Origin: Diplonema japonicum
Lineage: Eukaryota; Protista; Euglenozoa: Diplonemea
Reading direction: 5' to 3'
Length of the DNA stretch: 64,000 nucleotides
Assembly (NCBI GenBank): GCA_964019335.1
Contig: OZ025666.1
Span: 372,001 to 436,000, forward strand
The notes under the pieces were generated by a model. That model was not told where the DNA came from. It did no database searches and saw only the letters and a program-made list of their open reading frames with translations. A program made the position numbers and the translations under genes. The stretch's first letter is position 1. Each line of letters opens with the position of its first letter. Of the stretch, positions 13,222 through 58,972 are shown in pieces.

Positions 13222-16200
13222 ATGGCCGATGTATCTGAAGAGAAGCCCCCGAGCAAAGTGCTTGGGATCGACGAGAGCATTCAAGTGGGTGAAAGAGACG
13301 GAGAGCCTGTCACCACCTCGGAGCTCTTCAGGTTCGCAAAAGGGCCAGAGAAGACCCTCCTTATCACTGGCATTATTGGTGCAGTCTTCGTCGGTGCCGC
13401 TCTCCCTATTTTCTCGTACCTCTTTGGGAAGATGGTGAACGAGGCATCTGGTGAAAACGAGGCTGAGGTTGGCGAGGACGTGGCGAAGTGGGCGAAATGG
13501 ATGGCCATTGCCGCTGGTATTGCTTTCATTGCAGGCTGGATCATGATGAGCAGTTTCCTCATCTCTGGTGAGAAGCAGACCCAAAAGATCCGAGAGAAGT
13601 ACTTCGAGTCCCTGATGAGGCAGGAGCCTGGGTGGTTCGACTTGCAACGAACCGGAGCACTCACAACAAGACTCCATGGCGACACGCAGGTGATCCATGC
13701 CGGTATTGGTGAGAAGGCAGGCTTCTTCTTCATGCATACCTCCACAGTAGTTCTCTCTTATGTTGTGGGGTTTCTCTCCTCGTGGCGACTCACCCTTGTC
13801 CTCCTTGGTGTTGTTCCCTTCTTGGCCGTGGCTGGTGGGTTGATGCACTACGTTCTCACCACTGTGACGACGAAGAGCAGGGCAGCCTACGCCCTTGCAG
13901 GTGCTGTCTCTGAGGAGGTGTTTGGATCAATGAGAACAGTTCATGCATTCAGTGCCCACAAGAAGCTCGTTGGGATGTACAATGGACACCTTGACAATGC
14001 CCGTGATAGCGGGATGTACCTTGGTGTGTCCACTGGTGGTGGTATCGGCATCACGATGTTGCTCTTCTTCGCCTCGTACTGCGTCGGCTTCTACTACGCC
14101 TCCTACCTTGTGAAGTGGGATCTCAACAACATGGGTGACATCCTCAGTGCCTTCTTTGCCATTGTGATCGGATCCTTCTCCTTGGGACAGATAGCACCCC
14201 CGATGGCCGCCTTCGCTTCGGCACGTGCGGCGGCCTTCCGAGTTTTCGCAGTGATCGACAGGGAGCCCCGTGTGCAGCCTGGGAAGAAGAAGCTTGAAAA
14301 CCTGAAGGGGAGGGTCTGCCTTGAGAACCTCACCTTTCGGTACCCCTCTCGCACGGACTACCCTGTGTTCAAGAACATGAACATCGAGATGGAGGCGAAC
14401 AAGACTGTGGCGCTGGTCGGGTTGTCCGGGTGTGGGAAGTCTTCGATCGTGTCTATCGTGCAGAGGTTTTACGAACCGGCGGCGGGGCAGTTCGGGATCA
14501 TCCTCGATAACGGGGCGATGAAGGCGTACCCTTACGAGACGAACCTTGAGCTCTTGGAGCACAGGCAGAACAGCAAGGGTGGGCAGTTCACTGTCGAGCT
14601 TCCCATCACACACGACTCGCAACACCTGAAGAAGTGCTTGGTGGACTTGGGGGCAGAGACCCACAGTGTTCCCGACACTGACGGTCCGATCCGGTGCGAA
14701 GGGGGCAGGTGGTTCTGGGTTGAGAAGGAGCAGAAGGAAGGAGAGGAGGCTGTGGAGTTCGAGCTCCCCCCTGCAGTGTCCCTGAGGCTGTCACAGGCAC
14801 AGAACGAGAACGAGCAGGAGGTGAGCCTGGAGCTTGCCTTCGGGATGTACAAGTTCGACGTGAGCAAGATGAGGAGGACGAACGTGACGCAGCGCATCGT
14901 GTACTCCGACAACGGGCAGGTGACTGTGGACGGGACCCCGATCGGGAACCTGGACCTGGAGTGGTGGAGGGATCAGATCGGGATGGTGACCCAAGAGCCT
15001 GTTCTGTTTGTAGGGTCTGTTTCCGACAACATCCGGATGGGGAAGAGGGATGCGACGCTGGACGAGATCAAGGACGCTTGCAGGAAGGCACACATCCACC
15101 ACGTGATTGAGAAGTGGCCTGAGAAGTATGACACGCTTGTGGGTGAGGGTGGGTCGCAGTTGTCGGGTGGGCAGAAGCAGCGTATCGCGATCGCGAGGGC
15201 CATCATCAAGAAGCCACGTGTTTTGATCTTGGACGAGGCCACCTCGGCCCTGGACAGGGCGTCGGAGTTACAGGTGCAGAAGGCTTTGGACAAGTTGCTG
15301 TCGAGCGAGCACCACGAGAAGCCGACGACCATCGTGATCGCTCACAGGCTGCAGACAGTGATGAAGGCGGACAAGATCGTTGTGATGCAACCTCCTGCGA
15401 ACTCGACAAGTGGGAAGGGGGCGAAGATCGTGGAGGTGGGAACACACTCGGAACTCTTGGAGAAGAAGGTATGTGTTAATTTGTGTTTTTTAAGTGTCTC
15501 TCGATCACACACCACACCTTTAATCAGGGTCATTACGCATCTCTCTGGAACACCCAGAGCAAGGCTGTTCACACGACTCAGAAGACAAGTGACGCGAATG
15601 CACCGAACAAAGGGGACGACGAAGTCAGCAAGGATGATGATGATGTCGTGTCTGTGGCCACAAGTGAGGAAGACGATGCACCACTTGCTGTGGGGAAGAC
15701 GGCCTCTGAACTCAAGAAGGAGAAGAAGGAGGCGATGGAGAAGAAGGTGGCAGAAAAGAGCAGCTTGGCGAGGGTGGCAAGGCTTGCTGGTCCTTGGAAT
15801 GTTTGGCTTATTCCTGCGATGATTGGTTGCATCATGAATGGGGCTGTGTATCCTATTTATGCTTACCTCTTCACTGAGGCACTTGATGTGTTCAGGGACC
15901 TTCAGAACAACAAGCCTCTTTCCCCCGCAGGGGCGCCACAGGAGGTCACTGACAGAGACGAAATTGATGTCTGGGCCTTCATGTTCCTGGCACTTGGTGG
16001 CTGGGCTCTTATCGCTAACATCATGCAATTCGGCAGCTTCGGGTACATGGCGGCACAGCTGACACACCGCATCCGCTCCATGCTGTTCGAGCACATCCTT
16101 ACCCAAGACATGTCCTTCTTCGACATTCCTGACCACGAGAGCGGGGCTCTATCAGCTATCCTCTCTGGGAAGGCTGAGGCCATCAACACCATGTTCGGTC

Positions 16201-17603
16201 CCAACATCGGGATGATCCTCCGCACCCTCTTCTGTCTTGGGATTGGGTTTGGAATTGCCTTTTCTGAGCAGTGGAAGCTTACCTTGGTGCTGCTCTCTTC
16301 TGTACCTGCTATGGCGTTGTCTGGCTTCTTGAACTTGCTTCTCATTGGTGAGGGTTTCGAAGGCAACTCCGGTGGAGCGGCTGGGAGGGTCACAAGCGAG
16401 GCCATCTCGAACATCAAAACTGTCTCCGCTTTCAACATGCAGGACAAGATGCTTGAAGTGTACTCCAAGGCAGGTGAGGGTGAGCTGGCAAAGAAGGAGA
16501 AGAGGTCCATCGGTATCGGGGCCACTTTCGGCTTCTCGCAGTTCTCGATGCTTGGCACCTTCGCCCTTGCCCTGTGGTATGGTGGGAGGCTCATCTCCGA
16601 TGGGGAGACTGACTTCAGGTCCATGATGCTTGTTCTGATGGAGGTGACGATGTCCGCCATGGGTGTCGGTGAGGCAATGGGTCTTCAAGGGACTGGTCTC
16701 GATGCGAAGGAAGCTGCAGCGGAAGTGTTTGAGATCCTGGACACGAAGTCGAAGGTGGACCAGATGTCATCTGAGGGGAAGAAAGGGGTGATGACAGACT
16801 GCAAGATCGACTTCCACGAGGTGACATTCCGGTACCCCACCCGCCCTAACATGACTGTTCTGAACAAGCTGAACCTTGAGATCCCTTCTGCTGGGGAGAA
16901 GGGGATGCAGGTCGGGCTGATCGGGGGCACGGGGAGCGGGAAGTCTACTGTTCTGCAGCTGTTGCAACGCTTCTACGAGGTCCCGGAGGGGAAGATCGTT
17001 GTGGACGGGACGGACCTGAGAGACGTGGACCTGCAGTGGTGGAGGGAGCAGGTCGGGGTTGTGTCGCAGGAGCCTGTGCTGTTCGCGACGAGCGTGTTGG
17101 AGAACATCCGGTTCGGGAAGGAGGATGCGACGCTGGAGGAGGCGATGGAGGCGGCGAAGCTGGCACACATCCACGACGACATCATGAAGCTCCCCGACCA
17201 GTACGAGACGAACGTGGGGGCGAAGGGGTCGCTCTTGTCTGGGGGTCAGAAGCAGAGGGTGGCGATCGCGAGGGCAATCGTGAAGAAGCCGAGGGTACTG
17301 CTCCTGGACGAGGCGACATCGGCACTGGACAACGCGAGCGAGAAGGAGGTGCAGAGGGCGCTGGACAACGTGATCTCCTCCAGCTCCATGACCACCATCA
17401 CAATCGCACACAAGCTCACCACCATCCAGCAGGCCGACTCCATCACCGTCCTCGACAGGGGTGACATCATCGAGCAAGGGACCCACGAAGAGCTCATGAA
17501 GATCGAGAACGGGGACTACAAATCCCGCTTCATGCTTTACCACTCCATCGACACAGCTGATGGTGAGGGTGAGACTAGCCCTAGTCATTCGAACCCTTTC
17601 TGA
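13222..17603 (+). CDS. ABCB1/MDR-like full ABC transporter, copy 1; intron 15469-15527; about 1440 aa
   Basis: TMD-NBD-TMD-NBD layout with Walker A GLSGCGKS and GGTGSGKS, LSGGQKQR twice and LDEATSALD twice. A 59-bp GTATG...CAG intron fuses the two ORFs (LEKK|GHYA). Confidence 0.95.
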
Positions 17604-18324
17604 ACAAAAGGTGTTCAACCCTAGTCATTAAGCCCGTTCTGTAGCCATAACTTGAAATGGTGTGATGAAAATGAGAATTTACGCTTCCTAGTTTTTATTT
17701 CTCCCACCAAACTTTTAGAGACAAGTATGGTCTTTTTCTCTCTACCTTAACTTGCAGCTTTTTTTTTGTGAGTTGCTTGTTTCCCTCTCTTCTAACACTC
17801 TTCCCTCTCGAAGATTTTTTTAATCGTTTGTAAAGAAGCAATTAAAAGTAATATCATTGAAAAGATAAAAAGTATTATAAAGACATTCGGGGCGAATTGA
17901 ATTCGCGTTTTTCGTTGTTACAATTAATTGTGATTGTGCATCGAAAGATAAACTCATTCGCACCCCGTACTTCTTATTTTCCTTTTTTTTTTTTTCTCTC
18001 TTGTTTCGTTAAGATCTTCAGTTGTTTAGCCGAGCTTCAGGCTTTACTACTTACAATAGTTTCTTCGTATTACTGATTTGTTGCCGAAGGCATGCAATTA
18101 CTGTTTCATGTTGCAGAGAGCTGAGGAAGGAGGGGGATGAGAACTGTCCTGCAGGTACACGGCCCTTAAGTATAAAAAGAAGAAAAAGAAAGGGAAGGGA
18201 AATGTCCGGAACAGTCTGCCTTCCTTCCGGTAATATTTTTTTTACAGTAATAAAAAAACAAACACAGGTTAACCGTTTTCTTCTCTTTTCTTTTACCCTC
18301 TCTTCCATACACAACAAAGACACG

Positions 18325-19149
18325 ATGACGATGATGCTGCGCTCCCTTGTGTGCGTGACAACACTGTTCGCATCGGCCCACGGGCACGGCTACGTGAAGG
18401 CACCTGCGTCGAGGAACTACGCTTGCAAGCAAGGGTCGAACAAGAACTGCGGCGGGGTGCAGTACGAACCGCAGAGCGTGGAGGGGGCGGACAGGTACCC
18501 TGACAGCGGGCCTTCGGACGGAACGCTCGCTGCGGCGGGGCAGGACAACTGGGCGGCCCTGAACGAGCAGTCAACGACGAGGTGGGCGAAGACTTCGATC
18601 AGCTCCGGCCCTGTGGACTTCACGTGGCAGTTCACGGCGAACCACATCACGCGGGACTGGAGGTACTACATCACGAAGGAGGGGTGGAACGGGGTGACCC
18701 CTCTGGGGAGGAACACCTTGGAGAGCAGCCCCTTCTGCACGGTGGACGGAGCAATGGTGCAGCCGCCGATGGTGGTGACGCACTCGTGCACGGTCCCGAC
18801 GAGGAGCGGCTACCACGTGGTCCTCGCCATCTGGGACGTCGGTGACACTGCGGCCAGCTTCTACAACGCCATCGACCTCGACTTCAACGGGGGCAGCACG
18901 ACCCCTGTCCCGACAACCCTCCCCACCCCGGCCCCAACAGGGGACACCGCAAGCCCTGTCCCGACACCGGTTCCTACAAATGCCCCTCCTGCAGGGATCT
19001 GCAACGGCCCTGTTATCGCAGAGTGGGGAAGCTGCCTTGACTCGCCTTCGTGCTGCGAGGCTCCCGCCCGCTGCTACCAGCAGAACCAGTGGTACGCCCA
19101 GTGCAGGGCGAAGTGCGATGTCCCTGAGTGGTGCAAGCTCATCGGATGA
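18325..19149 (+). CDS. Lytic polysaccharide monooxygenase AA10 (CBP21/GbpA-like) with P/T linker and CBM1-like tail
   Basis: Signal peptide then HGYV (His-brace His1), YEPQSVEG, FTANH, HVVLAIWDVGDTAASFYNAID. C-terminal WGSC...CYQQNQWYAQC. Confidence 0.93.
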   Translation: MTMMLRSLVCVTTLFASAHGHGYVKAPASRNYACKQGSNKNCGGVQYEPQSVEGADRYPDSGPSDGTLAAAGQDNWAALNEQSTTRWAKTSISSGPVDFTWQFTANHITRDWRYYITKEGWNGVTPLGRNTLESSPFCTVDGAMVQPPMVVTHSCTVPTRSGYHVVLAIWDVGDTAASFYNAIDLDFNGGSTTPVPTTLPTPAPTGDTASPVPTPVPTNAPPAGICNGPVIAEWGSCLDSPSCCEAPARCYQQNQWYAQCRAKCDVPEWCKLIG

Positions 19150-20178: not shown

Positions 20179-23100
20179 GAGCTCGTCCGGAAAACAATGT
20201 CAACACTTTTTTGGGCACCTCCGAAAATTTCTTGTTTTGATTATTTGAGCAAAAAAAGGGCAGCATGCAACCATAGGAAGATGACATATGTGGTGTACAT
20301 GACGCCGTTCTTTCAATTGCGGTGCTTGTTTTGCCATGAGGGTGGCAGGCTTTGCAACCGGCTGCCCCCGGGAAGCGGAAAATAGAGGTCAGAAGAACGA
20401 CGAAAAATGTTTAAAATGCAGTTTAAAAGCTTGAAATGCAGCACCTAGGGTGCATAAATGTGGTGAACACACACCTTTGTGTCCCCTGGGTACAACCCAG
20501 GGTCGGGTTACTGTTAAAAGTACTTAGCGAAAAATATATGGCATTGCAAAACCCCCCAAAAACCGGTAAAACCCGTTTTCCAGTGTTTTTTTGACCCGAA
20601 ACAAGGGGCGTTTTTCAGGTTCCGGGGGGTGAAGGCAAAAGAAAAACACGAAATAAAAACAATAACAATATTGAGAAATGGCACTTTTTGTGACTTTTTC
20701 CCCCGTTTTTTTTCCGTTTTTTATAATTTCTTACACTTTATTATCACACTATTCACCAGCCCAACACTGAACACAGCATTCACTGTAACCACACGATCAG
20801 CCCACACTAAACTCTTTTTCTTTGGCTTCCCTCCCCCTCTCTTCACAGGCTTTTCCTCGGTGCTGCTACTTTCCTCTTCGGAATCACTGCTTTCGCCGTC
20901 GCACGTTTTTTGCTGGCGGTGGGGGCGTACTTCATGGCATGAGCAGTGCGGTCCACGTTTTCGGACCGAATGGCCATTCTCTCATCCTGGGATTGGGCAT
21001 ATTTCAGAAGGCGACGAGGTTTGATTGAGATGGAAGAAGATTCGACAGATTCGGTAAGAGGATGGCCACTGTTGCTGCCGCTGCCGCTGCTGCTGTTACT
21101 GCTCTCACTATCAGTATCACTGTCAGTATCCGAATCACTAGCATCTGTGTTTCGAACATCATCAGAGGAGAACATCACCTTCTCATCCCAATCATTGGAC
21201 CCAAAGACCGTCTCATATCGAATTGTTCCAGATGTCTGCCCCCCTGCAAAGTGGAACTTCTGCATGATGGAGTCCACCTTCCTCAATATCGTCGGTATCG
21301 TTGTTGCCGTCTGCGAGGGTCGTGCTGGAGAGACTCCAACCGTGCGCGCAAAGAACAACCACGAAGCACGAGGGCCGTACCACTTCTCGGCGCGCGAAAG
21401 CCACCCTACCATGCTATGACACTTGAAGTGTTTGGCGTTGTCTGAGAAGAAAGTCAGATTGCTCGGGTTGTTGTGGTCTTCTAGAATATGGGGGAGCACC
21501 AACCGCATGCACTTCCGAGTTATCTGGGCGGACTGCTTGTTGTTGTGCATCATGGCGAAGTAGCTCCTATACAGTATGGGACCGCCTAGCTTATCCCGGC
21601 TGGCAACGACGAACGTCAAAATACTACTTTTGTATTTGTTGAACTCGTTCTGTTGCAGCTCGAGATATGACTGGTGGACAAACCGGGCGCTATAGTCGAC
21701 GACAACACGATAATTCCGTCTGGCTGGAGGTTGATGTGGATTTCCTTGGCTTCTTCCTCGTCGGCGGTGCACGTAGTTGTGGAAGGCGTAAGCCATCATC
21801 TGCTTACACAAGAGCCACATGAAAGAGGTTACGGAGTACGTCGTCAGGCGGGGTTCACAGACCTGGGCCTGCGATCTTTTGATAGTTTCATACTTCCTGA
21901 AGGTGATCCGACGCGACGGGACCGCACCAGCTCGTGCTTGAAACATGAGGGGAAGAGAATTGGCCCACATGACTTGCAAGCTCCAGTTGAACACGTGAGG
22001 CTGTCGCGGTTGCAGAGAAAAGTCTCCAGCAGATCATTCAGATCGCTGATTGGTACAATTCCGTGTTCTTTGCACCCCTCATCGCAGCTCGATCTGTACT
22101 CCTGCGCTGAACGCCAGCTGCAGAGGTCGTCAAGCATAAGCTCTGTCTGGTGTCTCTGCTTGCAAACGACCCGAGGGGTGTTCGGGGCAGGTCGAACCTC
22201 CAGAGGACGCAACGCAAAAAAGATTGTACGCTTCGCAAGACCGCCCTCCGCTACGTACTTGTTAGTGCGGTGTATGAAATACGAAGCAACATGAGGTTCA
22301 CCTTCCGTGTGTCGCCTGGGCCAGCTTCTGCTGCTTCGCAAACTCTGCGTTCGTCCTCCAAAACTTCCGGACGTTTTTTCGCATGAGGCGGCGCTTCCTC
22401 GTAGCTTCGCTATCTTCAGCCTTCTGAGGGGGACACGCGCACGGTACAGTCGGCGGTTTTCCTTCCCGCCCCTGACAAACCCCAGATCCTTCGCGACGCC
22501 ATTTATCAGATCGTAGTTCGCGAGCACAGAGAGGAGTGCCTTTCTTTGCTTATTTCCGAGGGTAGGCCATGCCCAGCGGATAGTAGCACAACAAGAACAG
22601 CTGCACATCCCTGCTTCTGGCGTCTTCTTCGCAGATGTGGGTGTCCTGCCAAGGCGGGTTGGTGTAGAGGGGATGCCTTGTTCGGTCGGCTGCGGTGCTC
22701 TCTTCACGACGGCCCTCGACATGGCAGAGTGACAAGGGGGCAAGCACACCGATCAGGTGCGTATGGGGGGATAGCGAACTGTGCCTGCACTGTAGGATCA
22801 TTACAGTGAGATGAGCGCAGTTTGTACTTCCCTGAGACGAGGTCTCTCACCTTCTGTCGCGTGCATTTGAAGCCGTTGGTGGCGCATACTTTCCCCCTGG
22901 TCCCAAAACCCTTCTTTCCCAAGGATGTCAAGCATTTCACACACACTACTTCCCTCTCTTTCACCTTCTGTTGAACAACACTGGGCAGGGTCTCATACTT
23001 GAATAACCCATCCACAGACCCACAAGAACAAGCCATATTCTTTTAGAAATAAAGTACAGTCCCCTTAGTAGGTGTTTTGAGTGTCCAGGTGCACACAAAC

Positions 23101-23370: not shown

Positions 23371-26300
23371 ATGGCTGAAGCTGTCGATGTTCATGAAGAG
23401 AAGCCTCCCAGCAAAGTGCTTGGGATCGACGAGAGCATTCAAGTGGGTGAAAGAGACGGAGAGCCTGTCACTACCGCGGAGCTCTTCAGGTTCGCAAAAG
23501 GGAAAGAGAAGACCCTCCTTATCATAGGCATCGCAGGTGCTATTGTAACTGGTTCGGCCCTCCCTGTCTTTTCATACCTCTTTGGGAAGATGGTGAACAC
23601 TGTGTCTGGTAAGAATGAAGCTGAAGTCGGCGAAGATGTGGCTAAATGGGCGAAATGGATGGCCATTGCCGCTGGTATTGCCTTCATTTCGGGCTGGATC
23701 ATGATGACCAGTTTCCTCACCTTTGGCGAGAAGCAGGTTAAAACGATCCGAGAGAAGTACTTCGAGTCCCTGATGAGGCAGGAGCCTGGGTGGTTCGACT
23801 TGCAACGAACCGGAGCACTCACAACAAGACTCCATGGCGACACGCAGGTGATCCATGCCGGTATTGGTGAGAAGGCAGGCTTCTTCTTTTTGCACACTTC
23901 AACTATTGTTTTCTCTTATGTTGTGGGGTTTCTCTCCTCGTGGCGACTCACCCTTGTCCTCCTTGGTGTTGTTCCCTTCATTGCATTGTCTAGTCTCTTG
24001 ATGAACCACGTTCTCACCACTGTGACGACGAAGAGCAGGGCAGCCTACGCCCTTGCAGGTACTGTCTCTGAGGAGGTGTTTGGATCAATGAGAACAGTTC
24101 ATGCATTCAGTGCCCACAAGAAGCTCATCGGGATGTACAATGGACACCTTGACAATGCCCGTGATAGCGGGAAGTACCTTGGCTTGTCCACTGGTGGTGG
24201 TGTCGGCATCACGATGTTTATCTTCTTTGCTTCCTATACTGTCGGCTTCTACTACGCCTCCTACCTTGTGAAGTGGGATCTCAACAACATGGGTGACATC
24301 CTCAGTGCCTTCTTTTCCGTCGTGATCGGATCCTTCTCCTTGGGACAGATAGCACCCCCGATGGCCGCCTTCGCTTCGGCACGTGCGGCGGCCTTCCGAG
24401 TTTTCGCAGTGATCGACAGGGAGCCCCGTGTGCAGCCTGGGAAGAAGAAGCTTGAAAACCTGAAGGGGAAGGTCTGCCTTGAGAACCTCACCTTTCGGTA
24501 CCCCTCTCGCACGGACTACCCTGTGTTCAAGAACATGAACATCGAGATGGAGGCGAACAAGACTGTGGCGCTGGTCGGGTTGTCCGGGTGTGGGAAGTCT
24601 TCGATCGTGTCTATCGTGCAGAGGTTTTACGAACCGGCGGCGGGGCAGTTCGGGATCATCCTCGATAACGGGGCGATGAAGGCGTACCCTTACGAGACGA
24701 ACCTTGAGCTCTTGGAGCACAGGCAGAACAGCAAGGGTGGGCAGTTCACTGTCGAGCTTCCCATCACACACGACTCGCAACACCTGAAGAAGTGCTTGGT
24801 GGACTTGGGGGCAGAGACCCACAGTGTTCCCGACACTGACGGTCCGATCCGGTGCGAAGGGGGCAGGTGGTTCTGGGTTGAGAAGGAGCAGAAGGAAGGA
24901 GAGGAGGCTGTGGAGTTCGAGCTCCCCCCTGCAGTGTCCCTGAGGCTGTCACAGGCACAGAACGAGAACGAGCAGGAGGTGAGCCTGGAGCTTGCCTTCG
25001 GGATGTACAAGTTCGACGTGAGCAAGATGAGGAGGACGAACGTGACGCAGCGCATCGTGTACTCCGACAACGGGCAGGTGACTGTGGACGGGACCCCGAT
25101 CGGGAACCTGGACCTGGAGTGGTGGAGGGATCAGATCGGGATGGTGACCCAAGAGCCTGTTCTGTTTGTAGGGTCTGTTTCCGACAACATCCGGATGGGG
25201 AAGAGGGATGCGACGCTGGACGAGATCAAGGACGCTTGCAGGAAGGCACACATCCACCACGTGATTGAGAAGTGGCCTGAGAAGTATGACACGCTTGTGG
25301 GTGAGGGTGGGTCGCAGTTGTCGGGTGGGCAGAAGCAGCGTATCGCGATCGCGAGGGCCATCATCAAGAAGCCACGTGTTTTGATCTTGGACGAGGCCAC
25401 CTCGGCCCTGGACAGAGCGTCGGAGTTACAGGTGCAGAAGGCTTTGGACAAGTTGCTGTCGAGCGAGCACCACGAGAAGCCGACGACCATCGTGATCGCT
25501 CACAGGCTGCAGACAGTGATGAAGGCGGACAAGATCGTTGTGATGCAACCTCCTGCGAACTCGACAAGTGGGAAGGGGGCGAAGATCGTGGAGGTGGGAA
25601 CACACTCGGAACTCTTGGAGAAGAAGGTATGTGTTAATTTGTGTTTTTTAAGTGTCTCTCGATCACACACCACACCTTTAATCAGGGTCATTACGCATCT
25701 CTCTGGAACACCCAGAGCAAGGCTGTTCACACGACTCAGAAGACAAGTGACGCGAATGCACCGAACAAAGGGGACGACGAAGTCAGCAAGGATGATGATG
25801 ATGTCGTGTCTGTGGCCACAAGTGAGGAAGACGATGCACCACTTGCTGTGGGGAAGACGGCCTCTGAACTCAAGAAGGAGAAGAAGGAGGCGATGGAGAA
25901 GAAGGTGGCAGAAAAGAGCAGCTTGGCGAGGGTGGCAAGGCTTGCTGGTCCTTGGAATGTTTGGCTTATTCCTGCGATGATTGGTTGCATCATGAATGGG
26001 GCTGTGTATCCTGTTTATGCTTACCTCTTCACTGAGGCACTTGATGTGTTCAGGGACCTTCAGAACAACCAACCCCTTTCCCCCGCCGGGGCACCGCAAA
26101 TGGTCACTGACAGAGACGAAATCGACAAGTGGGCCCTTTCGTTCCTTGGGGTTGGTGGTCTTGCACTCATTTCAAACATCATGCAGTTTGGCTGCTTTGG
26201 GTACATGGCGGCACAGCTGACACACCGCATCCGCTCCATGCTGTTCGAGCACATCCTTACCCAAGACATGTCCTTCTTCGACATTCCTGACCACGAGAGC

Positions 26301-27749
26301 GGGGCTCTATCAGCTATCCTCTCTGGGAAGGCTGAGGCCATCAACACCATGTTCGGTCCCAACATCGGGATGATCCTCCGCACCCTCTTCTGTCTTGGGA
26401 TCGGGTTTGGAATTGCCTTTTCTGAGCAGTGGAAGCTTACCTTGGTGCTGCTCTCTTCTGTACCTGCTATGATGCTGGCTGGTTTCTTGGAAATGCTTCT
26501 TATGGGTGAAGGCACGGAAGGCACTTCCGGTGGAGCGGCTGGGAGGGTCACAAGCGAGGCCATCTCGAACATCAAAACTGTCTCCGCTTTCAACATGCAG
26601 GACAAGATGCTTAAGGAGTACTCCAAGGCAGGTGAGGGTGAGCTGGCAAAGAAGGAGAAGAGGTCCATCGGTATCGGAGCCGTTTATGGTTTCTCGCAGT
26701 TCTCGCTTCTTGGCACCTTCGCCCTTGCCCTGTGGTATGGTGGAAAACTCATCTCCGATGGGGAGACTGACTTCAGGTCCATGATGCTTGTTCTGATGGA
26801 GGTGACGATGTCCGCCATGGGTGTCGGTGAGTCGATGGGTCTTCAAGGGACTGGTCTCGATGCGCAGGAAGCTGCAGCGGAAGTGTTTGAGATCCTGGAC
26901 ACGAAGTCAAAGGTGGACCAGATGTCATCTGAGGGGAAGAAAGGGGTGATGACAGACTGCAAGATCGACTTCCACGAGGTGACATTCCGGTACCCCACCC
27001 GCCCTAACATGACTGTTCTGAACAAGCTGAACCTTGAGATCCCTTCTGCTGGGGAGAAGGGGATGCAGGTCGGGCTGATCGGGGGCACGGGGAGCGGGAA
27101 GTCTACTGTTCTGCAGCTGTTGCAACGCTTCTACGAGGTCCCGGAGGGGAAGATCGTTGTGGACGGGACGGACCTGAGAGACGTGGACCTGCAGTGGTGG
27201 AGGGAGCAGGTCGGGGTTGTGTCGCAGGAGCCTGTGCTGTTCGCGACGAGCGTGTTGGAGAACATCCGGTTCGGGAAGGAGGATGCGACGCTGGAGGAGG
27301 CGATGGAGGCGGCGAAGCTGGCACACATCCACGACGACATCATGAAGCTCCCCGACCAGTACGAGACGAACGTGGGGGCGAAGGGGTCGCTCTTGTCTGG
27401 GGGTCAGAAGCAGAGGGTGGCGATCGCGAGGGCAATCGTGAAGAAGCCGAGGGTACTGCTCCTGGACGAGGCGACATCGGCACTGGACAACGCGAGCGAG
27501 AAGGAGGTGCAGAGGGCGCTGGACAACGTGATCTCCTCCAGCTCCATGACCACCATCACAATCGCACACAAGCTCACCACCATCCAGCAGGCCGACTCCA
27601 TCACCGTCCTCGACAGGGGTGACATCATCGAGCAAGGGACCCACGAAGAGCTCATGAAGATCGAGAACGGGGACTACAAATCCCGCTTCATGCTTTACCA
27701 CTCCATCGACACAGCTGATGGTGAGGGTGATGCCTCGAACCCATACTAG
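23371..27749 (+). CDS. ABCB1/MDR-like transporter, copy 2; intron 25627-25685
   Basis: Same architecture and identical intron. Substitutions relative to copy 1 lie mostly in TM helices. Confidence 0.95.
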
Positions 27750-28696: not shown

Positions 28697-31600
28697 ATGG
28701 AAGAGAAGCCCCCCAGTAGAATGCTTGGGATCGACGAGAGCATTCAAGTGGGTGAAAGAGACGGAGAGCCTGTCACTACCGCGGAGCTCTTCAGGTTCGC
28801 AAAAGGGCCAGAGAAGACCCTCCTTATCACTGGCATTATTGGTGCCGTTGTGGTAGGTGCTGCTTTCCCTATCTTCTCGTACCTCTTTGGGAAGATGGTG
28901 AACGAGGCATCTGGTGAAAACGAGGCTGAGGTTGGCGAGGACGTGGCGAAGTGGGCGAAATGGATGGCCATTGCCGCTGGTTTTACCTTCATTTCAGGCT
29001 GGGTCATGATGAGCAGTTTCCTCATCTCTAGCGAGAAGCAGACCCAAAAGATCCGAGAGAAGTACTTCGAGTCCCTGATGAGGCAGGAGCCTGGGTGGTT
29101 CGACTTGCAACGAACCGGAGCACTCACAACAAGACTCCATGGCGACACGCAGGTAATCCATGCTGGTATTGGTGAGAAGGCAGGCTTCTTCTTCATGCAT
29201 ACCTCCACAGTTGTTCTCTCTTATGTTGTGGGGTTTCTCTCCTCGTGGCGACTCACCCTTGTCCTCCTTGGTGTTGTTCCCTTCATTACATTGGCTGGTG
29301 GGTTGATGAACTACGTTCTCACCACTGTGACGACGAAGAGCAGGGCAGCCTACGCCCTTGCAGGTGCTGTCTCTGAGGAGGTGTTTGGATCAATGAGAAC
29401 AGTTCATGCATTCAGTGCCCACAAGAAGCTCATCGGGATGTACAATGGACACCTTGACAATGCCCGTGATAGCGGGAAGTACCTTGGCTTGTCCACTGGT
29501 GGTGGTGTCGGCATCACGATGTTTATCTTCTTTGCTTCCTATACTGTCGGCTTCTACTACGCCTCCTACCTTGTGAAGTGGGATCTCAACAACATGGGTG
29601 ACATCCTCAGTGCCTTCTTTGCCATTGTGATCGGATCCTTCTCCTTGGGACAGATAGCACCCCCGATGGCCGCCTTCGCTTCGGCACGTGCGGCGGCCTT
29701 CCGGGTTTTCGCAGTGATCGACAGGGAGCCCCGTGTGCAGCCTGGGAAGAAGAAGCTTGAAAACCTGAAGGGGAAGGTCTGCCTTGAGAACCTCACCTTT
29801 CGGTACCCCTCTCGCACGGACTACCCTGTGTTCAAGAACATGAACATCGAGATGGAGGCGAACAAGACTGTGGCGCTGGTCGGGTTGTCCGGGTGTGGGA
29901 AGTCTTCGATCGTGTCTATCGTGCAGAGGTTTTACGAACCGGCGGCGGGGCAGTTCGGGATCATCCTCGATAACGGGGCGATGAAGGCGTACCCTTACGA
30001 GACGAACCTTGAGCTCTTGGAGCACAGGCAGAACAGCAAGGGTGGGCAGTTCACTGTCGAGCTTCCCATCACACACGACTCGCAACACCTGAAGAAGTGC
30101 TTGGTGGACTTGGGGGCAGAGACCCACAGTGTTCCCGACACTGACGGTCCGATCCGGTGCGAAGGGGGCAGGTGGTTCTGGGTTGAGAAGGAGCAGAAGG
30201 AAGGAGAGGAGGCTGTGGAGTTCGAGCTCCCCCCTGCAGTGTCCCTGAGGCTGTCACAGGCACAGAACGAGAACGAGCAGGAGGTGAGCCTGGAGCTTGC
30301 CTTCGGGATGTACAAGTTCGACGTGAGCAAGATGAGGAGGACGAACGTGACGCAGCGCATCGTGTACTCCGACAACGGGCAGGTGACTGTGGACGGGACC
30401 CCGATCGGGAACCTGGACCTGGAGTGGTGGAGGGATCAGATCGGGATGGTGACCCAAGAGCCTGTTCTGTTTGTAGGGTCTGTTTCCGACAACATCCGGA
30501 TGGGGAAGAGGGATGCGACGCTGGACGAGATCAAGGACGCTTGCAGGAAGGCACACATCCACCACGTGATTGAGAAGTGGCCTGAGAAGTATGACACGCT
30601 TGTGGGTGAGGGTGGGTCGCAGTTGTCGGGTGGGCAGAAGCAGCGTATCGCGATCGCGAGGGCCATCATCAAGAAGCCACGTGTTTTGATCTTGGACGAG
30701 GCCACCTCGGCCCTGGACAGAGCGTCGGAGTTACAGGTGCAGAAGGCTTTGGACAAGTTGCTGTCGAGCGAGCACCACGAGAAGCCGACGACCATCGTGA
30801 TCGCTCACAGGCTGCAGACAGTGATGAAGGCGGACAAGATCGTTGTGATGCAACCTCCTGCGAACTCGACAAGTGGGAAGGGGGCGAAGATCGTGGAGGT
30901 GGGAACACACTCGGAACTCTTGGAGAAGAAGGTATGTGTTAATTTGTGTTTTTTAAGTGTCTCTCGATCACACACCACACCTTTAATCAGGGTCATTACG
31001 CATCTCTCTGGAACACCCAGAGCAAGGCTGTTCACACGACTCAGAAGACAAGTGACGCGAATGCACCGAACAAAGGGGACGACGAAGTCAGCAAGGATGA
31101 TGATGATGTCGTGTCTGTGGCCACAAGTGAGGAAGACGATGCACCACTTGCTGTGGGGAAGACGGCCTCTGAACTCAAGAAGGAGAAGAAGGAGGCGATG
31201 GAGAAGAAGGTGGCAGAAAAGAGCAGCTTGGCGAGGGTGGCAAGGCTTGCTGGTCCTTGGAATGTTTGGCTTATTCCTGCGATGATTGGTTGCATCATGA
31301 ATGGGGCTGTGTATCCTGTTTATGCTTACCTCTTCACTGAGGCACTTGATGTGTTCAGGGACCTTCAGAACAACCAACCCCTTTCCCCCGCCGGGGCACC
31401 GCAAATGGTCACTGACAGAGACGAAATCGACAAGTGGGCCCTTTCGTTCCTTGGGGTTGGTGGTCTTGCACTCATTTCAAACATCATGCAGTTTGGCTGC
31501 TTTGGGTACATGGCGGCACAGCTGACACACCGCATCCGCTCCATGCTGTTCGAGCACATCCTTACCCAAGACATGTCCTTCTTCGACATTCCTGACCACG

Positions 31601-33060
31601 AGAGCGGGGCTCTATCAGCTATCCTCTCTGGGAAGGCTGAGGCCATCAACACCATGTTCGGTCCCAACATCGGGATGATCCTCCGCACCCTCTTCTGTCT
31701 TGGGATCGGGTTTGGAATTGCCTTTTCTGAGCAGTGGAAGCTTACCTTGGTGCTGCTCTCTTCTGTACCTGCTATGATGCTGGCTGGCTTCTTGAACACG
31801 CTGCTTATCGGTGAAGGCATGGGAGGCACTTCCGGTGGAGCGGCTGGGAGGGTCACAAGCGAGGCCATCTCGAACATCAAAACTGTCTCCGCTTTCAACA
31901 TGCAGGACAAGATGCTTGAAGTGTACTCCAAGGCAGGTGAGGGTGAGCTGGCAAAGAAGGAGAAGAGGTCCATCGGTATCGGAGCTTCTTTCGGTTTCTC
32001 GCAGTTCTCGATGCTTGGCACCTTCGCCCTTGCCCTGTGGTATGGTGGGAGGCTCATCTCCGATGGGGAGACTGACTTCAGGTCCATGATGCTTGTTCTG
32101 ATGGAGGTGACGATGTCCGCCATGGGTGTCGGTGAGGCAATGGGTCTTCAAGGGACTGGTCTCGATGCGAAGGAAGCTGCAGCGGAAGTGTTTGAGATCC
32201 TGGACACGAAGTCGAAGGTGGACCAGATGTCATCTGAGGGGAAGAAAGGGGTGATGACAGACTGCAAGATCGACTTCCACGAGGTGACATTCCGGTACCC
32301 CACCCGCCCTAACATGACTGTTCTGAACAAGCTGAACCTTGAGATCCCTTCTGCTGGGGAGAAGGGGATGCAGGTCGGGCTGATCGGGGGCACGGGGAGC
32401 GGGAAGTCTACTGTTCTGCAGCTGTTGCAACGCTTCTACGAGGTCCCGGAGGGGAAGATCGTTGTGGACGGGACGGACCTGAGAGACGTGGACCTGCAGT
32501 GGTGGAGGGAGCAGGTCGGGGTTGTGTCGCAGGAGCCTGTGCTGTTCGCGACGAGCGTGTTGGAGAACATCCGGTTCGGGAAGGAGGATGCGACGCTGGA
32601 GGAGGCGATGGAGGCGGCGAAGCTGGCACACATCCACGACGACATCATGAAGCTCCCCGACCAGTACGAGACGAACGTGGGGGCGAAGGGGTCGCTCTTG
32701 TCTGGGGGTCAGAAGCAGAGGGTGGCGATCGCGAGGGCAATCGTGAAGAAGCCGAGGGTACTGCTCCTGGACGAGGCGACATCGGCACTGGACAACGCGA
32801 GCGAGAAGGAGGTGCAGAGGGCGCTGGACAACGTGATCTCCTCCAGCTCCATGACCACCATCACAATCGCACACAAGCTCACCACCATCCAGCAGGCCGA
32901 CTCCATCACCGTCCTCGACAGGGGTGACATCATCGAGCAAGGGACCCACGAAGAGCTCATGAAGATCGAGAACGGGGACTACAAATCCCGCTTCTTGCTT
33001 TACCACTCCATCGACACGTGTGTAGCTGATGGTGAGGGTGATGCCTCGAACCCCTTTTAA
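28697..33060 (+). CDS. ABCB1/MDR-like transporter, copy 3; intron 30932-30990
   Basis: Same architecture; a mosaic of copy 1 and copy 2 segments. Confidence 0.95.
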
Positions 33061-34587: not shown

Positions 34588-37500
34588 ATGGCCGATGTAT
34601 CTGAAGAGAAGCCCCCGAGCAAAGTGCTTGGGATCGACGAGAGCATTCAAGTGGGTGAAAGAGACGGAGAGCCTGTCACCACCTCGGAGCTCTTCAGGTT
34701 CGCAAAAGGGCCAGAGAAGACCCTCCTTATCACTGGCATTATTGGTGCAGTCTTCGTCGGTGCCGCTCTCCCTATTTTCTCGTACCTCTTTGGGAAGATG
34801 GTGAACGAGGCATCTGGTGAAAACGAGGCTGAGGTTGGCGAGGACGTGGCGAAGTGGGCGAAATGGATGGCCATTGCCGCTGGTATTGCTTTCATTGCAG
34901 GCTGGATCATGATGAGCAGTTTCCTCATCTCTGGTGAGAAGCAGACCCAAAAGATCCGAGAGAAGTACTTCGAGTCCCTGATGAGGCAGGAGCCTGGGTG
35001 GTTCGACTTGCAACGAACCGGAGCACTCACAACAAGACTCCATGGCGACACGCAGGTGATCCATGCCGGTATTGGTGAGAAGGCAGGCTTCTTCTTCATG
35101 CATACCTCCACAGTTGTTCTCTCTTATGTTGTGGGGTTTCTCTCCTCGTGGCGACTCACCCTTGTCCTCCTTGGTGTTGTTCCCTTCTTGGCCGTGGCTG
35201 GTGGGTTGATGCACTACGTTCTCACCACTGTGACGACGAAGAGCAGGGCAGCCTACGCCCTTGCAGGTGCTGTCTCTGAGGAGGTGTTTGGATCAATGAG
35301 AACAGTTCATGCATTCAGTGCCCACAAGAAGCTCGTTGGGATGTACAATGGACACCTTGACAATGCCCGTGATAGCGGGATGTACCTTGGTGTGTCCACT
35401 GGTGGTGGTATCGGCATCACGATGTTGCTCTTCTTCGCCTCGTACTGCGTCGGCTTCTACTACGCCTCCTACCTTGTGAAGTGGGATCTCAACAACATGG
35501 GTGACATCCTCAGTGCCTTCTTTGCCATTGTGATCGGATCCTTCTCCTTGGGACAGATAGCACCCCCGATGGCCGCCTTCGCTTCGGCACGTGCGGCGGC
35601 CTTCCGAGTTTTCGCAGTGATCGACAGGGAGCCCCGTGTGCAGCCTGGGAAGAAGAAGCTTGAAAACCTGAAGGGGAGGGTCTGCCTTGAGAACCTCACC
35701 TTTCGGTACCCCTCTCGCACGGACTACCCTGTGTTCAAGAACATGAACATCGAGATGGAGGCGAACAAGACTGTGGCGCTGGTCGGGTTGTCCGGGTGTG
35801 GGAAGTCTTCGATCGTGTCTATCGTGCAGAGGTTTTACGAACCGGCGGCGGGGCAGTTCGGGATCATCCTCGATAACGGGGCGATGAAGGCGTACCCTTA
35901 CGAGACGAACCTTGAGCTCTTGGAGCACAGGCAGAACAGCAAGGGTGGGCAGTTCACTGTCGAGCTTCCCATCACACACGACTCGCAACACCTGAAGAAG
36001 TGCTTGGTGGACTTGGGGGCAGAGACCCACAGTGTTCCCGACACTGACGGTCCGATCCGGTGCGAAGGGGGCAGGTGGTTCTGGGTTGAGAAGGAGCAGA
36101 AGGAAGGAGAGGAGGCTGTGGAGTTCGAGCTCCCCCCTGCAGTGTCCCTGAGGCTGTCACAGGCACAGAACGAGAACGAGCAGGAGGTGAGCCTGGAGCT
36201 TGCCTTCGGGATGTACAAGTTCGACGTGAGCAAGATGAGGAGGACGAACGTGACGCAGCGCATCGTGTACTCCGACAACGGGCAGGTGACTGTGGACGGG
36301 ACCCCGATCGGGAACCTGGACCTGGAGTGGTGGAGGGATCAGATCGGGATGGTGACCCAAGAGCCTGTTCTGTTTGTAGGGTCTGTTTCCGACAACATCC
36401 GGATGGGGAAGAGGGATGCGACGCTGGACGAGATCAAGGACGCTTGCAGGAAGGCACACATCCACCACGTGATTGAGAAGTGGCCTGAGAAGTATGACAC
36501 GCTTGTGGGTGAGGGTGGGTCGCAGTTGTCGGGTGGGCAGAAGCAGCGTATCGCGATCGCGAGGGCCATCATCAAGAAGCCACGTGTTTTGATCTTGGAC
36601 GAGGCCACCTCGGCCCTGGACAGGGCGTCGGAGTTACAGGTGCAGAAGGCTTTGGACAAGTTGCTGTCGAGCGAGCACCACGAGAAGCCGACGACCATCG
36701 TGATCGCTCACAGGCTGCAGACAGTGATGAAGGCGGACAAGATCGTTGTGATGCAACCTCCTGCGAACTCGACAAGTGGGAAGGGGGCGAAGATCGTGGA
36801 GGTGGGAACACACTCGGAACTCTTGGAGAAGAAGGTATGTGTTAATTTGTGTTTTTTAAGTGTCTCTCGATCACACACCACACCTTTAATCAGGGTCATT
36901 ACGCATCTCTCTGGAACACCCAGAGCAAGGCTGTTCACACGACTCAGAAGACAAGTGACGCGAATGCACCGAACAAAGGGGACGACGAAGTCAGCAAGGA
37001 TGATGATGATGTCGTGTCTGTGGCCACAAGTGAGGAAGACGATGCACCACTTGCTGTGGGGAAGACGGCCTCTGAACTCAAGAAGGAGAAGAAGGAGGCG
37101 ATGGAGAAGAAGGTGGCAGAAAAGAGCAGCTTGGCGAGGGTGGCAAGGCTTGCTGGTCCTTGGAATGTTTGGCTTATTCCTGCGATGATTGGTTGCATCA
37201 TGAATGGGGCTGTGTATCCTATTTATGCTTACCTCTTCACTGAGGCACTTGATGTGTTCAGGGACCTTCAGAACAACAAGCCTCTTTCCCCCGCAGGGGC
37301 GCCACAGGAGGTCACTGACAGAGACGAAATTGATGTCTGGGCCTTCATGTTCCTGGCACTTGGTGGCTGGGCTCTTATCGCTAACATCATGCAATTCGGC
37401 AGCTTCGGGTACATGGCGGCACAGCTGACACACCGCATCCGCTCCATGCTGTTCGAGCACATCCTTACCCAAGACATGTCCTTCTTCGACATTCCTGACC

Positions 37501-38969
37501 ACGAGAGCGGGGCTCTATCAGCTATCCTCTCTGGGAAGGCTGAGGCCATCAACACCATGTTCGGTCCCAACATCGGGATGATCCTCCGCACCCTCTTCTG
37601 TCTTGGGATTGGGTTTGGAATTGCCTTTTCTGAGCAGTGGAAGCTTACCTTGGTGCTGCTCTCTTCTGTACCTGCTATGGCGTTGTCTGGCTTCTTGAAC
37701 TTGCTTCTCATTGGTGAGGGTTTCGAAGGCAACTCCGGTGGAGCGGCTGGGAGGGTCACAAGCGAGGCCATCTCGAACATCAAAACTGTCTCCGCTTTCA
37801 ACATGCAGGACAAGATGCTTGAAGTGTACTCCAAGGCAGGTGAGGGTGAGCTGGCAAAGAAGGAGAAGAGGTCCATCGGTATCGGGGCCACTTTCGGCTT
37901 CTCGCAGTTCTCGATGCTTGGCACCTTCGCCCTTGCCCTGTGGTATGGTGGGAGGCTCATCTCCGATGGGGAGACTGACTTCAGGTCCATGATGCTTGTT
38001 CTGATGGAGGTGACGATGTCCGCCATGGGTGTCGGTGAGGCAATGGGTCTTCAAGGGACTGGTCTCGATGCGAAGGAAGCTGCAGCGGAAGTGTTTGAGA
38101 TCCTGGACACGAAGTCGAAGGTGGACCAGATGTCATCTGAGGGGAAGAAAGGGGTGATGACAGACTGCAAGATCGACTTCCACGAGGTGACATTCCGGTA
38201 CCCCACCCGCCCTAACATGACTGTTCTGAACAAGCTGAACCTTGAGATCCCTTCTGCTGGGGAGAAGGGGATGCAGGTCGGGCTGATCGGGGGCACGGGG
38301 AGCGGGAAGTCTACTGTTCTGCAGCTGTTGCAACGCTTCTACGAGGTCCCGGAGGGGAAGATCGTTGTGGACGGGACGGACCTGAGAGACGTGGACCTGC
38401 AGTGGTGGAGGGAGCAGGTCGGGGTTGTGTCGCAGGAGCCTGTGCTGTTCGCGACGAGCGTGTTGGAGAACATCCGGTTCGGGAAGGAGGATGCGACGCT
38501 GGAGGAGGCGATGGAGGCGGCGAAGCTGGCACACATCCACGACGACATCATGAAGCTCCCCGACCAGTACGAGACGAACGTGGGGGCGAAGGGGTCGCTC
38601 TTGTCTGGGGGTCAGAAGCAGAGGGTGGCGATCGCGAGGGCAATCGTGAAGAAGCCGAGGGTACTGCTCCTGGACGAGGCGACATCGGCACTGGACAACG
38701 CGAGCGAGAAGGAGGTGCAGAGGGCGCTGGACAACGTGATCTCCTCCAGCTCCATGACCACCATCACAATCGCACACAAGCTCACCACCATCCAGCAGGC
38801 CGACTCCATCACCGTCCTCGACAGGGGTGACATCATCGAGCAAGGGACCCACGAAGAGCTCATGAAGATCGAGAACGGGGACTACAAATCCCGCTTCATG
38901 CTTTACCACTCCATCGACACAGCTGATGGTGAGGGTGAGACTAGCCCTAGTCATTCGAACCCTTTCTGA
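34588..38969 (+). CDS. ABCB1/MDR-like transporter, copy 4; intron 36835-36893
   Basis: Protein identical to copy 1 at a constant offset of 21366 bp. Identity continues about 590 bp into the 3' flank. Confidence 0.95.
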
Positions 38970-43113: not shown

Positions 43114-44793
43114 ATGAAGGCAATGAAGGTATTAGGGCTCGTAATGCTCGTAGGTGCTGCGTCGGGGCAGTCGGTCGCCGATTGTCAAAGGTGCATCAAC
43201 AGAGGGGAGCCCTGTTATAAATCAGACTGGGCTGAGCCGTGTTATCCAGGTGGGGGCAGTGCAGGTGCATGTGCGGCGAATGGAGCAACATGGTGCCCAA
43301 GCATGGGGGGGACTGGTCCCGCACCGAATCCGACCCCCACTCCCCCCACCCCCCCCGCTGGTCCCAGTGCACAGGCGGGGCACGACAGCAGGCTCATTGC
43401 GTACGTCGGCAATTGGCAGGCCTGCCCCACGGACGCACAGGTGAACGCCTACACCCACATCCTCGTTTCCTTCGCTGTGTCATACACCTGGGCCGCTGCC
43501 AAGAACCAGTGCAACGCGCAGTGCAAGATCAGCACGCCTGTCCCTGTCTGCAACAACGCACCCAACCCTGGCCTCATCTCCAAGTGGCGTGCTGCTGGTA
43601 AAAAGGTCATCCTCTCCTTCGGCGGTGCCGGCATGGGTGGCTCTTGGGACGGCCTCAACGACTGCTGGGAGTACTGCTACGGGAAGGAGGACTACGTCAT
43701 CCAGCAGCTTGTCGATATCTCCAGGAGCCAGGGCTTCGACGGGGTGGACATCGACTACGAGTACTACTACGAGAACGGGCAGAGGGGGTCCTCCTTCGCT
43801 AAGGGTGCACAGGCTCAGAAGTTCCTGAGGGACGTGACAGTCGGGCTGAGGCAGAGCCTCCCCTCCGGGAGCGAGGTCTCGCACGCCCCTATGGATATCG
43901 ACATGAAGAAGGGGACCGGCTACTACAACGTCATCAAGGAGGTGGCGAGCTCCATGGACTTCCTCATGCCGCAGTACTACAACGGGGTGACCCGCCCCAA
44001 CACAGACGGGATCAACGGGGGGGTGCACGAGTCCGCCCTGCAGCACTTCAAGACCCTCGTCACGGATTGCTTCAACAACGACCCCACGAAGGTGGTGTTT
44101 GGGTTCTGCATCAGCGACTGCTCAGGCACCGGCTCCAACAGCAACGCGCAGCAGGCTGTCAGCGTGATGAACGACCTGAACAAAGAGTACCCCTGCAACG
44201 GGGGGGCTTTCTTCTGGGTTGCTCTGCACGACACCAACGGTGCCTGGTCGCGTACAGTAGGCAACACAGTCAGCCAGACAAGGGGCTGCAGCAGTGGCGG
44301 TAACCCCAACCCTCCTTCTACTCCCATGCCTACCCCTATGCCGACTCCCATGCCTACTCCTTTGCCGACTCCCATGCCCACTCCTATGCCTACTCCCATG
44401 CCGACCCCACAGCCTGCTAACGAGCCTGATGCTACTCCCATGCCTACTCCAATGCCCACTCCTATGCCTACTCCCATGCCGACCCCACAGCCTGCTAACG
44501 AGCCTGATGCTACTCCTATGCCCACTCCTATGCCAACTCCCATGCCGACCCCACAGCCTGCTAGCAGGACACCTGCTCCCACTCCCATGCCAACCCCTAT
44601 GCCGACTGATGCTTCCACTCCCGTGCCCACAGATGACAACCAGTGCGCACGCAGGATCGGAATGTGGGGCGGGTGCATGCAGAACAGGAACTGCTGTGAG
44701 GCAGGGCTTCAGTGCTACCAGCAGAGCAGGTGGTGGGCAAGGTGCCTGAGGAGGTGCTGGTACGCGCCTGAGTGCAGGAGGATCAGCAACTAG
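43114..44793 (+). CDS. Secreted GH18 chitinase with (PTPM)n linker and CBM1-like tail
   Basis: Signal peptide, KVILSFGG, catalytic [21 protein letters not shown]-terminal WGGC...[11 protein letters not shown]. Confidence 0.93.
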
Positions 44794-56887: not shown

Positions 56888-57804
56888 GCGAGTCGCGGTT
56901 CTTTTTTTTAAACAAAAAAGTAGATGATGCTGAAAAACTCACCACAAAGAAAAAGTCCTCAAGGGGCTTTTTTGTCTTCTACTTTGAGTAACAATAACTA
57001 TTCTTTAAAAGAAAATACCCCCATTTTTGTTTTCACCCTCTTCTCTTCTTTTCTTTTTCAAGTAGAGTCATCGCAAGTCACCCCAATGAGCACGCGCGCA
57101 TCTCTCCGGATGGACAGATACACGCCCATTGGACGGACGCATGTAGAGCAGAACTCTACATCGTCTTTGGATCTCTGATTTTACAAGAAAGAAGCAACGA
57201 GGGAGGGGCAGAATTCTCATTATTTTTACCGATCTTCTCAGCCTTCCTTAACTTTCTTTTTCTTATTTATTTGTAACCCTCACGAGTCCCTCCAATAAGA
57301 CGCGCATCTCTCCGGATGGACAGATACACGACACTTGGCAGGACGCATGTAGAGCAGAACTCTACATCGTCTTTGGATCTGTGATTTTACAAAGAAAGAA
57401 GCAAAACGAAATAAAAGAAGGTGTAAGAAGAAAGATATTTTTACATAAGGACGATCATGATGCATATCTAGAACAGAGGGTTGCAGTGGTCTTTTATGCT
57501 TTTTTTTTTTTTTGTTTTAACAATATTATTGTCGAGACTAAAAACTAGTTGATGGCAGCGTAATGAGCTATTTTATTAGGTAAAATTCCGCTCGTGCACA
57601 CAAACAAATGAAGCGCCAAAGTAGTTTTTTCCTTTCACTCTCTCTCTCTCCCTCTTTTTTTTTCAGCTTATCGCTTTCCTCTCTTCAATTTACCCATGTC
57701 TCTTCTATCTTGTATTTATTGAAATGATTTTCATGCTCATTGCTTTTCACTTTTGTTCATGCTTCTACGCTGCTGAAGTTATGCGACACACGACATTTCC
57801 CAAA

Positions 57805-58848: not shown

Positions 58849-58972
58849 GGCAGTGAGTGAGAATGTGGGACATGTTGCAAACCGAGTCCTAAAATGGATC
58901 AACGTGACATGCATCCTCCGCGCCCCCGTTTTTATTACTAAAAAAAGGAGGGAAACAAAAAAGAGGGGGAAA

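Follow-up and report, generated by a model that had tools for sequence, protein, structure and literature searches.

A predicted WWE-type module within the first nucleotide-binding domain of tandem ABCB transporters in Diplonema japonicum

The transporters ABCB1, ABCB4 and ABCB11 share the domain order TMD-NBD-TMD-NBD and a common set of ATPase motifs, and the proteins described here resemble them in both respects (best PDB matches, E about 1e-120). Extra segments are known on ABC proteins of otherwise standard build. The regulatory insert in NBD1 of CFTR is one of these, and its effect on regulation is shown; it is not a WWE domain and lies at a position other than the one considered here. 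The N-terminal R domain of PfMDR1 is another, for which regulation is shown in the accessible text of PMC10410737, again at a different position and not of the WWE type.

WWE domains occur singly in the E3 ligases TRIP12, HUWE1 and RNF146, and in pairs in Deltex (DTX1) and ZAP (PARP13). As described in PMC9720839, WWE1 of ZAP lacks a pocket and acts as a scaffold, a dead unit next to a live one. Among inserted WWE domains, that of VPS13A/C comes closest: a single domain of 75 residues is built into this lipid-transfer protein, which is unrelated to the present host, and is often missed by databases, according to PMC7613979.

In the 64-kb window analysed here (the whole stretch of 64,000 nucleotides), four tandem ABCB genes of D. 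japonicum encode an additional 143 aa in NBD1, and it is very probable that the architecture is that of an ABCB transporter with a WWE module in this domain. In the two top ABCB PDB matches shown, the NBD1 alignment breaks near human residue 448, where the 143 aa are inserted in the present proteins. Compared with TRIP12, HUWE1 and RNF146, the host is a transporter and not an E3 ligase, a second unit is predicted to be nested within the first, and the ADP pocket appears to be lost from the outer unit and to have arginine in place of its glutamine in the inner one. The tandems of Deltex and ZAP likewise have two units, but here no RING or PARP domain accompanies them. No published report of an ABCB-WWE fusion was found in a literature search that included the main text of PMC13257379 and reached few subscription journals and, for other papers, no supplements.

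Tandem ABCB genes and the NBD1 insert

By their architecture and motifs the four genes are P-glycoprotein-type ABCB full transporters. Pfam recognises two ABC_membrane domains and ABC_tran in protein P0009, a single chain of the order TMD-NBD-TMD-NBD, and in alignment both NBDs contain the established motifs of the ATPase: the A-loop Tyr, Walker A, the Q-loop, LSGGQ, the Walker B Asp-Glu, the D-loop and the H-loop. At the level of these motifs both ATPase sites are intact. An earlier note, made from the DNA letters, had likewise inferred a P-glycoprotein-like ABCB pump. Each copy has a single 59-nt GT-AG intron and a product of 1434-1440 aa (Table 1); at 1434 of its 1440 residues the product of copy 1 agrees with transcriptome protein P0011.

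Table 1. Coordinates of the ABCB genes and of the parts of the copy 1 insert in the window
Feature	Position	Strand	Remarks
ABCB copy 1, TMD1-NBD1(insert)-TMD2-NBD2	13222..17603	+	spliced 1440 aa
143-aa insert, copy 1, NBD1 loop after QRFYEP motif	14491..14919	+	429 nt, in frame
Outer WWE (predicted), first five strands and helix, aa 1-59	14491..14667	+	from alignment ranges; borders approximate
Inner WWE-like unit, aa 60-133, predicted circularly permuted	14668..14889	+	borders approximate
Strand aa 134-141, predicted to complete outer WWE	14890..14913	+	141 ~ HUWE1 1683, TRIP12 834
Copy 1 GT-AG intron, 59 nt	15469..15527	+	spliced in 3 of 4 runs examined
ABCB copy 2	23371..27749	+	insert 24649-25077, intron 25627-25685, 1439 aa
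ABCB copy 3	28697..33060	+	insert 29954-30382, intron 30932-30990, 1434 aa
ABCB copy 4	34588..38969	+	insert 35857-36285, intron 36835-36893, 1440 aa

The same note had proposed an in-frame insert of 143 aa with coding-type codon bias, and both statements hold. All 143 codons are free of stops, and the distance from QRFY to QEP, at the Q-loop, is 177 aa in NBD1 against 34 in NBD2, a difference of exactly 143. The other two frames of the + strand contain 7 and 4 stops, 21 of 5000 base shuffles of the insert stay open, and GC3 is 0.84 compared with 0.80-0.84 in the flanking NBD sequence. The reported identity of the insert in all four copies is confirmed (0 mismatches), but it extends beyond the insert: in NBD1, the linker and NBD2 the window copies agree just as closely (about 100%), and because the flanking NBDs are identical too, the agreement is uninformative about the insert. 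It would reflect recent duplication or homogenisation rather than selection acting on this segment. There is hardly any difference between copies 1 and 4, and the departures of copies 2 and 3 from copy 1 are confined to discrete blocks of TMD1 and TMD2, with up to 38 in 150 nt. These comparisons suggest homogenised motors with diversifying substrate-binding parts.

A 6-nt direct repeat stands at both ends of the insert, the 3' end of which reads CAG-G, and the orthologues keep only the downstream Gly; the border is therefore ambiguous by two codons, and 14485-14913 is equally valid. A target-site duplication was ruled out, the repeat being absent from the orthologues.

NBD1 has a second, smaller insertion of about 9 aa after the H-loop strand (about 15390-15430), which is found in all orthologues and not in NBD2. 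An LPMO_10 (AA10) gene (18202-19149, + strand, E 7e-46) lies between ABCB copies 1 and 2, as do two overlapping ORFs of 375 and 292 aa on the - strand (20843-22722) with no Pfam match, possibly, at a guess, a decayed mobile element. The product of a GH18 glycosidase gene (43114-44793, +, E 6e-11) has a long linker of Pro-Thr-Pro-Met repeats and ends in a Cys-rich tail that by eye resembles the tail of the LPMO gene. The 472-aa ORF at 57757-59175 (+) is a long tandem repeat with a BiP/Hsp70-like gene upstream. ORFs of 291 aa (2062-2937, +; Cys/Ala-rich and internally repeated) and 511 aa (46876-48411, +) have no Pfam match at E <= 0.01.

Predicted fold, nesting and pockets

A WWE fold for the insert is well supported by prediction. 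On the window insert the Pfam WWE profile (PF02825) reaches 14.0 bits (aa 94-133), and on full D. papillatum proteins 20.5 and 20.2 bits, against a gathering cut-off of 21.1; on inserts alone all seven match at E <= 1 (best E 2.8e-5). An AlphaFold model of the insert without its NBD, from an alignment of only 7 rows and 4 species, reached pLDDT 87 and pTM 0.76 (84.7-87.0 over five models) and contains two similar strand-strand-helix-strands repeats. A single-sequence model was poor (pLDDT 44) and was not used. When the model was aligned exhaustively to 48,161 chains, ranks 1-11 were all WWE domains (Z 6.8-9.5), the next fold scoring 4.7, with superpositions of 1.4-2.3 A rmsd over 63-68 residues that span model residues 1 to 141; the single domains of TRIP12, HUWE1 and RNF146 were among the closest (Z 8.9-9.5, 1.4-1.6 A, 65-68 residues). 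It is to the unit spanning 1 to 141 that this test of the fold, a six-strand half barrel with one helix, applies. Foldseek gave TRIP12 WWE a probability of 0.99 and a TM-score of 0.56, with nothing at E <= 0.001 and unrelated top rows by E-value. WWE-labelled clusters appeared in the ESM Atlas at 0.83, which we take as a lead only, and the D. papillatum insert returned nothing usable there. A PDB sequence search with the insert had 0 matches, and in two profile searches of PDB sequences there was likewise no WWE; the matches of these two to a Fab and to CBS (E 0.08-0.75) were attributed to chance.

The earlier suggestion of a WWE-like insert thus stands as to the fold, and a disordered or WWE-unrelated segment is not what was predicted, but there appear to be two WWE-like units and not one. 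The upstream PYETNL motif of the earlier note belongs to the outer unit. The conserved Trp-Trp-Glu motif of WWE domains is not preserved: the inner unit keeps W74 and W76 but has Glu for the second-strand Trp and S, Q or N for the helix Glu, and the outer unit is without Trp.

Each WWE match starts at model residue 1 and ends at 140-143, with about 66 residues aligned and about 75 looped out, while unrelated PAS-like matches delimit 60-134 as a compact unit within which the Pfam WWE match also falls. From these end points and spacings, an outer WWE (1-59 and 134-141) probably holds a circularly permuted inner WWE (65-70 and 73-132) with the last strands of the two exchanged. We put this no higher than probable, as it draws on end points and spacing and as the two halves resemble each other little in sequence (hhalign probability 3%, P = 0.014). 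Such an exchange would return both chain ends to the NBD loop.

An ordinary side-by-side tandem of the Deltex or ZAP kind, with the nesting an artefact of modelling, is a separate question from that of function. It would account for the two consecutive secondary-structure repeats in the sequence, residues 64-68 allow an in-register reading as the usual last hairpin, and the alignment behind the model is shallow. Against this, the tandem entries of DTX1, Deltex and ZAP superpose over only 64-67 of their 160-182 residues, equivalent to one domain, so that the predicted packing differs from theirs, and the TM-score to DTX1 is 0.32. The spacing from Gln to Arg is 9 residues in HUWE1 and 5 in the insert (129 to 134), and hinge deletions of this kind favour strand swapping; insertion into a hairpin loop, moreover, requires adjacent chain ends. 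We consider the side-by-side arrangement improbable, and the evidence points to a strand-swapped nested pair unlike the tandems of Deltex or ZAP.

In the pocket of HUWE1, W1619 stacks on the adenine, which is read by Q1667, while Y1658, N1669 and R1676 hold the phosphate; the glutamine makes a dual hydrogen bond to adenine in all the structures covered by the available part of PMC11269756. When model residues 1 and 141 are equated with HUWE1 1617 and 1683, the outer unit keeps none of the five ligand residues: Trp is replaced by I, M, A or V and Arg by Q, V or T, and, by spacing, Tyr, Gln and Asn by C, H or C, and V. In the inner unit, where spacing matches Y1658, Q1667 and N1669 to Y120, R129 and N131, W76 is kept in 7/7 sequences, Y120 in 6/7 and N131 in 7/7, but the adenine-reading glutamine is absent and is Arg (R129) in all seven. 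Depending on the register, the phosphate arginine of the inner unit is either the invariant R68 or replaced by G65. Canonical ADP-ribose binding, one of the roles raised in the earlier note, is disfavoured because of this Gln-to-Arg change in 7/7 inner units and the degenerate outer pocket. Since the insert retains neither the W-W-E motif nor the glutamine, it should not be classed among the canonical readers of ADP-ribose.

Distribution among diplonemids

A phmmer search of 1.84 billion representatives gave 3 matches at E <= 0.001, two of them ABCB proteins; the third, a PASTA-repeat protein (P0004), matched over 19 residues and was discarded as chance. A first homologue search with a length limit of 411-1311 aa had yielded 0 of 62 candidates, and cluster look-ups and further searches (2 of 556 and 5 of 7995 candidates) added more orthologues. 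The carriers are D. papillatum (five proteins), Rhynchopus humris, R. euleeides, D. japonicum and two ENA proteins, and the fusion is thus present in further euglenozoans, namely diplonemids of two genera. All 11 orthologue proteins have an insert of 143-158 aa at the same site of NBD1, in a set that is biased, having been found through the insert; none of the eight that have an NBD2 has one there. In public databases these proteins appear as 'Multidrug resistance protein 1' or 'hypothetical', with no WWE among their precomputed Pfam domains.

Across genera, identity to D. japonicum is 37-47% for the insert, 62-70% for the NBDs and 48-59% for the TMDs; the partly alignable linker has 35-42% in three proteins and 11% in one. 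Over seven sequences 35 of the 143 insert positions are invariant, 19 of them in the inner unit, and they include W74, W76, R129, N131, R68, E78, E86 and E89. The net charge is acidic in every one of the seven inserts (-6 to -9 in six, -5 in one).

Searches that were word-limited or used a single sequence found no relative of the insert outside Diplonema and Rhynchopus (Diplonemidae). An insert match was seen in 0 of 54 metagenome, 0 of 118 viral and 1 of 8 prokaryote candidates, the last (L001) being a coincidental 25-residue motif in an unrelated ORF. A degenerate DNA pattern found 10 metagenome loci; the top-scoring of the 11 loci together reached 12.9 bits, and none had ABC similarity. Bodo saltans virus is a giant virus of a euglenozoan host. 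Six of its WWE-domain-containing proteins are among the top 25 viral matches in BFVD, five with probabilities of 0.77-0.99 and none at E <= 0.001, and a giant-virus origin was considered on account of these ranks; the viral scan gave it no sequence support (0/118).

Possible roles of the insert

Insert residue 141 aligns with residue 448 of human ABCB1, three to four residues after the equivalent of Y444. In that protein L443/Y444 is the contact of coupling helix IH4 with NBD1, and this site tolerates mutation better than its NBD2 counterpart, as given in the portion of PMC4505440 available; such tolerance may be why it was NBD1 that took the insert. In the corresponding loop of PfMDR1 NBD2, 3 PfMDR1 rows of 46 align only from the loop onward, the other 43 from residues 1-14, and this loop seems likewise to be expanded, consistent with an insertion of PfMDR1 at that place.

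Our preferred reading, to which we give a probability of about 0.45, is that in this P-glycoprotein-type pump, on this view an active exporter, the nested WWE insert of NBD1 is a binding handle, for a protein partner or for a non-canonical anionic ligand, by which the pump would be recruited or tuned. A WWE domain would have entered the surface loop, three to four residues after the socket tyrosine of NBD1, in the ancestor of Diplonema and Rhynchopus. The duplicated pair, its last strands swapped, would have both chain ends returning to the loop; the outer unit, its pocket dead, would serve as a stalk, while the site of the inner unit would be a remodelled one with Arg in place of the adenine-reading Gln. 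Binding at the inner site could then act on the adjacent TMD-NBD1 coupling joint or on localisation. A role in protein interaction, the other one raised in the earlier note, would fit better than canonical ADP-ribose binding.

A stronger form, in which a WWE within a WWE acts as a sensor that gates transport through the TMD-NBD1 joint and reads either a modified ADP-ribose or nucleotide or a phosphorylated or acidic peptide, seems to us a rather doubtful proposition.

We also regard it as unlikely that the inner WWE binds an adenine nucleotide (ATP, ADP, ADP-ribose or PAR), making the pump a sensor of nucleotides or of ADP-ribosylation. The stacking Trp, the phosphate Tyr and the Asn are kept as described above, and the invariant R68, on the swapped strand, could act as the phosphate Arg, but the adenine-reading Gln is Arg throughout, the register of R68 is uncertain, with Gly65 perhaps holding the Arg position, and the acidic net charge is poor for PAR. 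For human WWE domains, PMC11269756 gives binding of ATP and ADPr in the range of 15-709 uM. Diplonemids have an orthogroup resembling PARP7/11/12/13, but in PMC10161547 it has 1 D. papillatum member and sits in the contractions table of that species.

A passenger that folds and binds nothing, kept only because it is seldom lost cleanly and NBD1 would suffer from its unfolding, likewise has the odds against it. Both pockets depart from the canonical set, the loop tolerates insertions, as the PfMDR1 rows indicate, and insert identity is below that of the TMDs. On the other side are its retention in all four window copies and in the 11 orthologues of that biased set, and invariant polar residues at R68, E78, E86, E89, R129 and N131. 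A purely structural role is possible, because the insert is conserved less than the TMDs and close to the alignable linker, and the invariant residues may be the fold core. The binding-handle reading is nevertheless the one that we prefer.

All of these readings concern a segment that is present in the protein. Contigs from four of the eight runs holding this stretch were examined, none recorded as RNA. One 1770-nt contig of run X7 covers 14083-15466 and 15526-15911, skipping the intron and keeping the whole insert with nothing added; a single contig of run X2 crosses 14427-15128 without gaps and with 20 differences, run X1 has contigs over each insert junction and run X3 over the 3' junction. 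The joint table holds two joints only, the intron and one NBD1-NBD2 jump, and a joint skipping the insert was found in none of the four runs. EukProt Trinity proteins labelled Diplonema japonicum contain the insert at 100% identity. The intron-less contig and the Trinity proteins show that the insert is retained in mRNA and not spliced out. Diplonemids have non-canonical introns with short repeats, and the end repeat and CAG-G of the insert recall these, and a rare spliced form could exist beyond what the contigs show; but a non-canonical intron or assembly artefact, missing from the protein, is refuted for the major form and has hardly any probability left, given the contig that skips the real intron and holds the entire insert, the Trinity proteins of two species, and conservation at the protein level across two genera in which the end repeat is absent.

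Our findings indicate that an ABCB ATPase can carry a whole folded module, as predicted here, near the joint that couples ATP to the membrane, with its catalytic motifs intact and in two genera. WWE domains have been known mainly from PARPs and E3 ligases; the present proteins add transporters to their hosts and suggest that the domains can be nested and their pocket rewired. D. papillatum, described as genetically tractable in PMC8611851, has orthologues, so the function is directly testable there. If gating by the insert were true, this would be the first case of a WWE module controlling an ABC transporter, and the module would have a new WWE topology.
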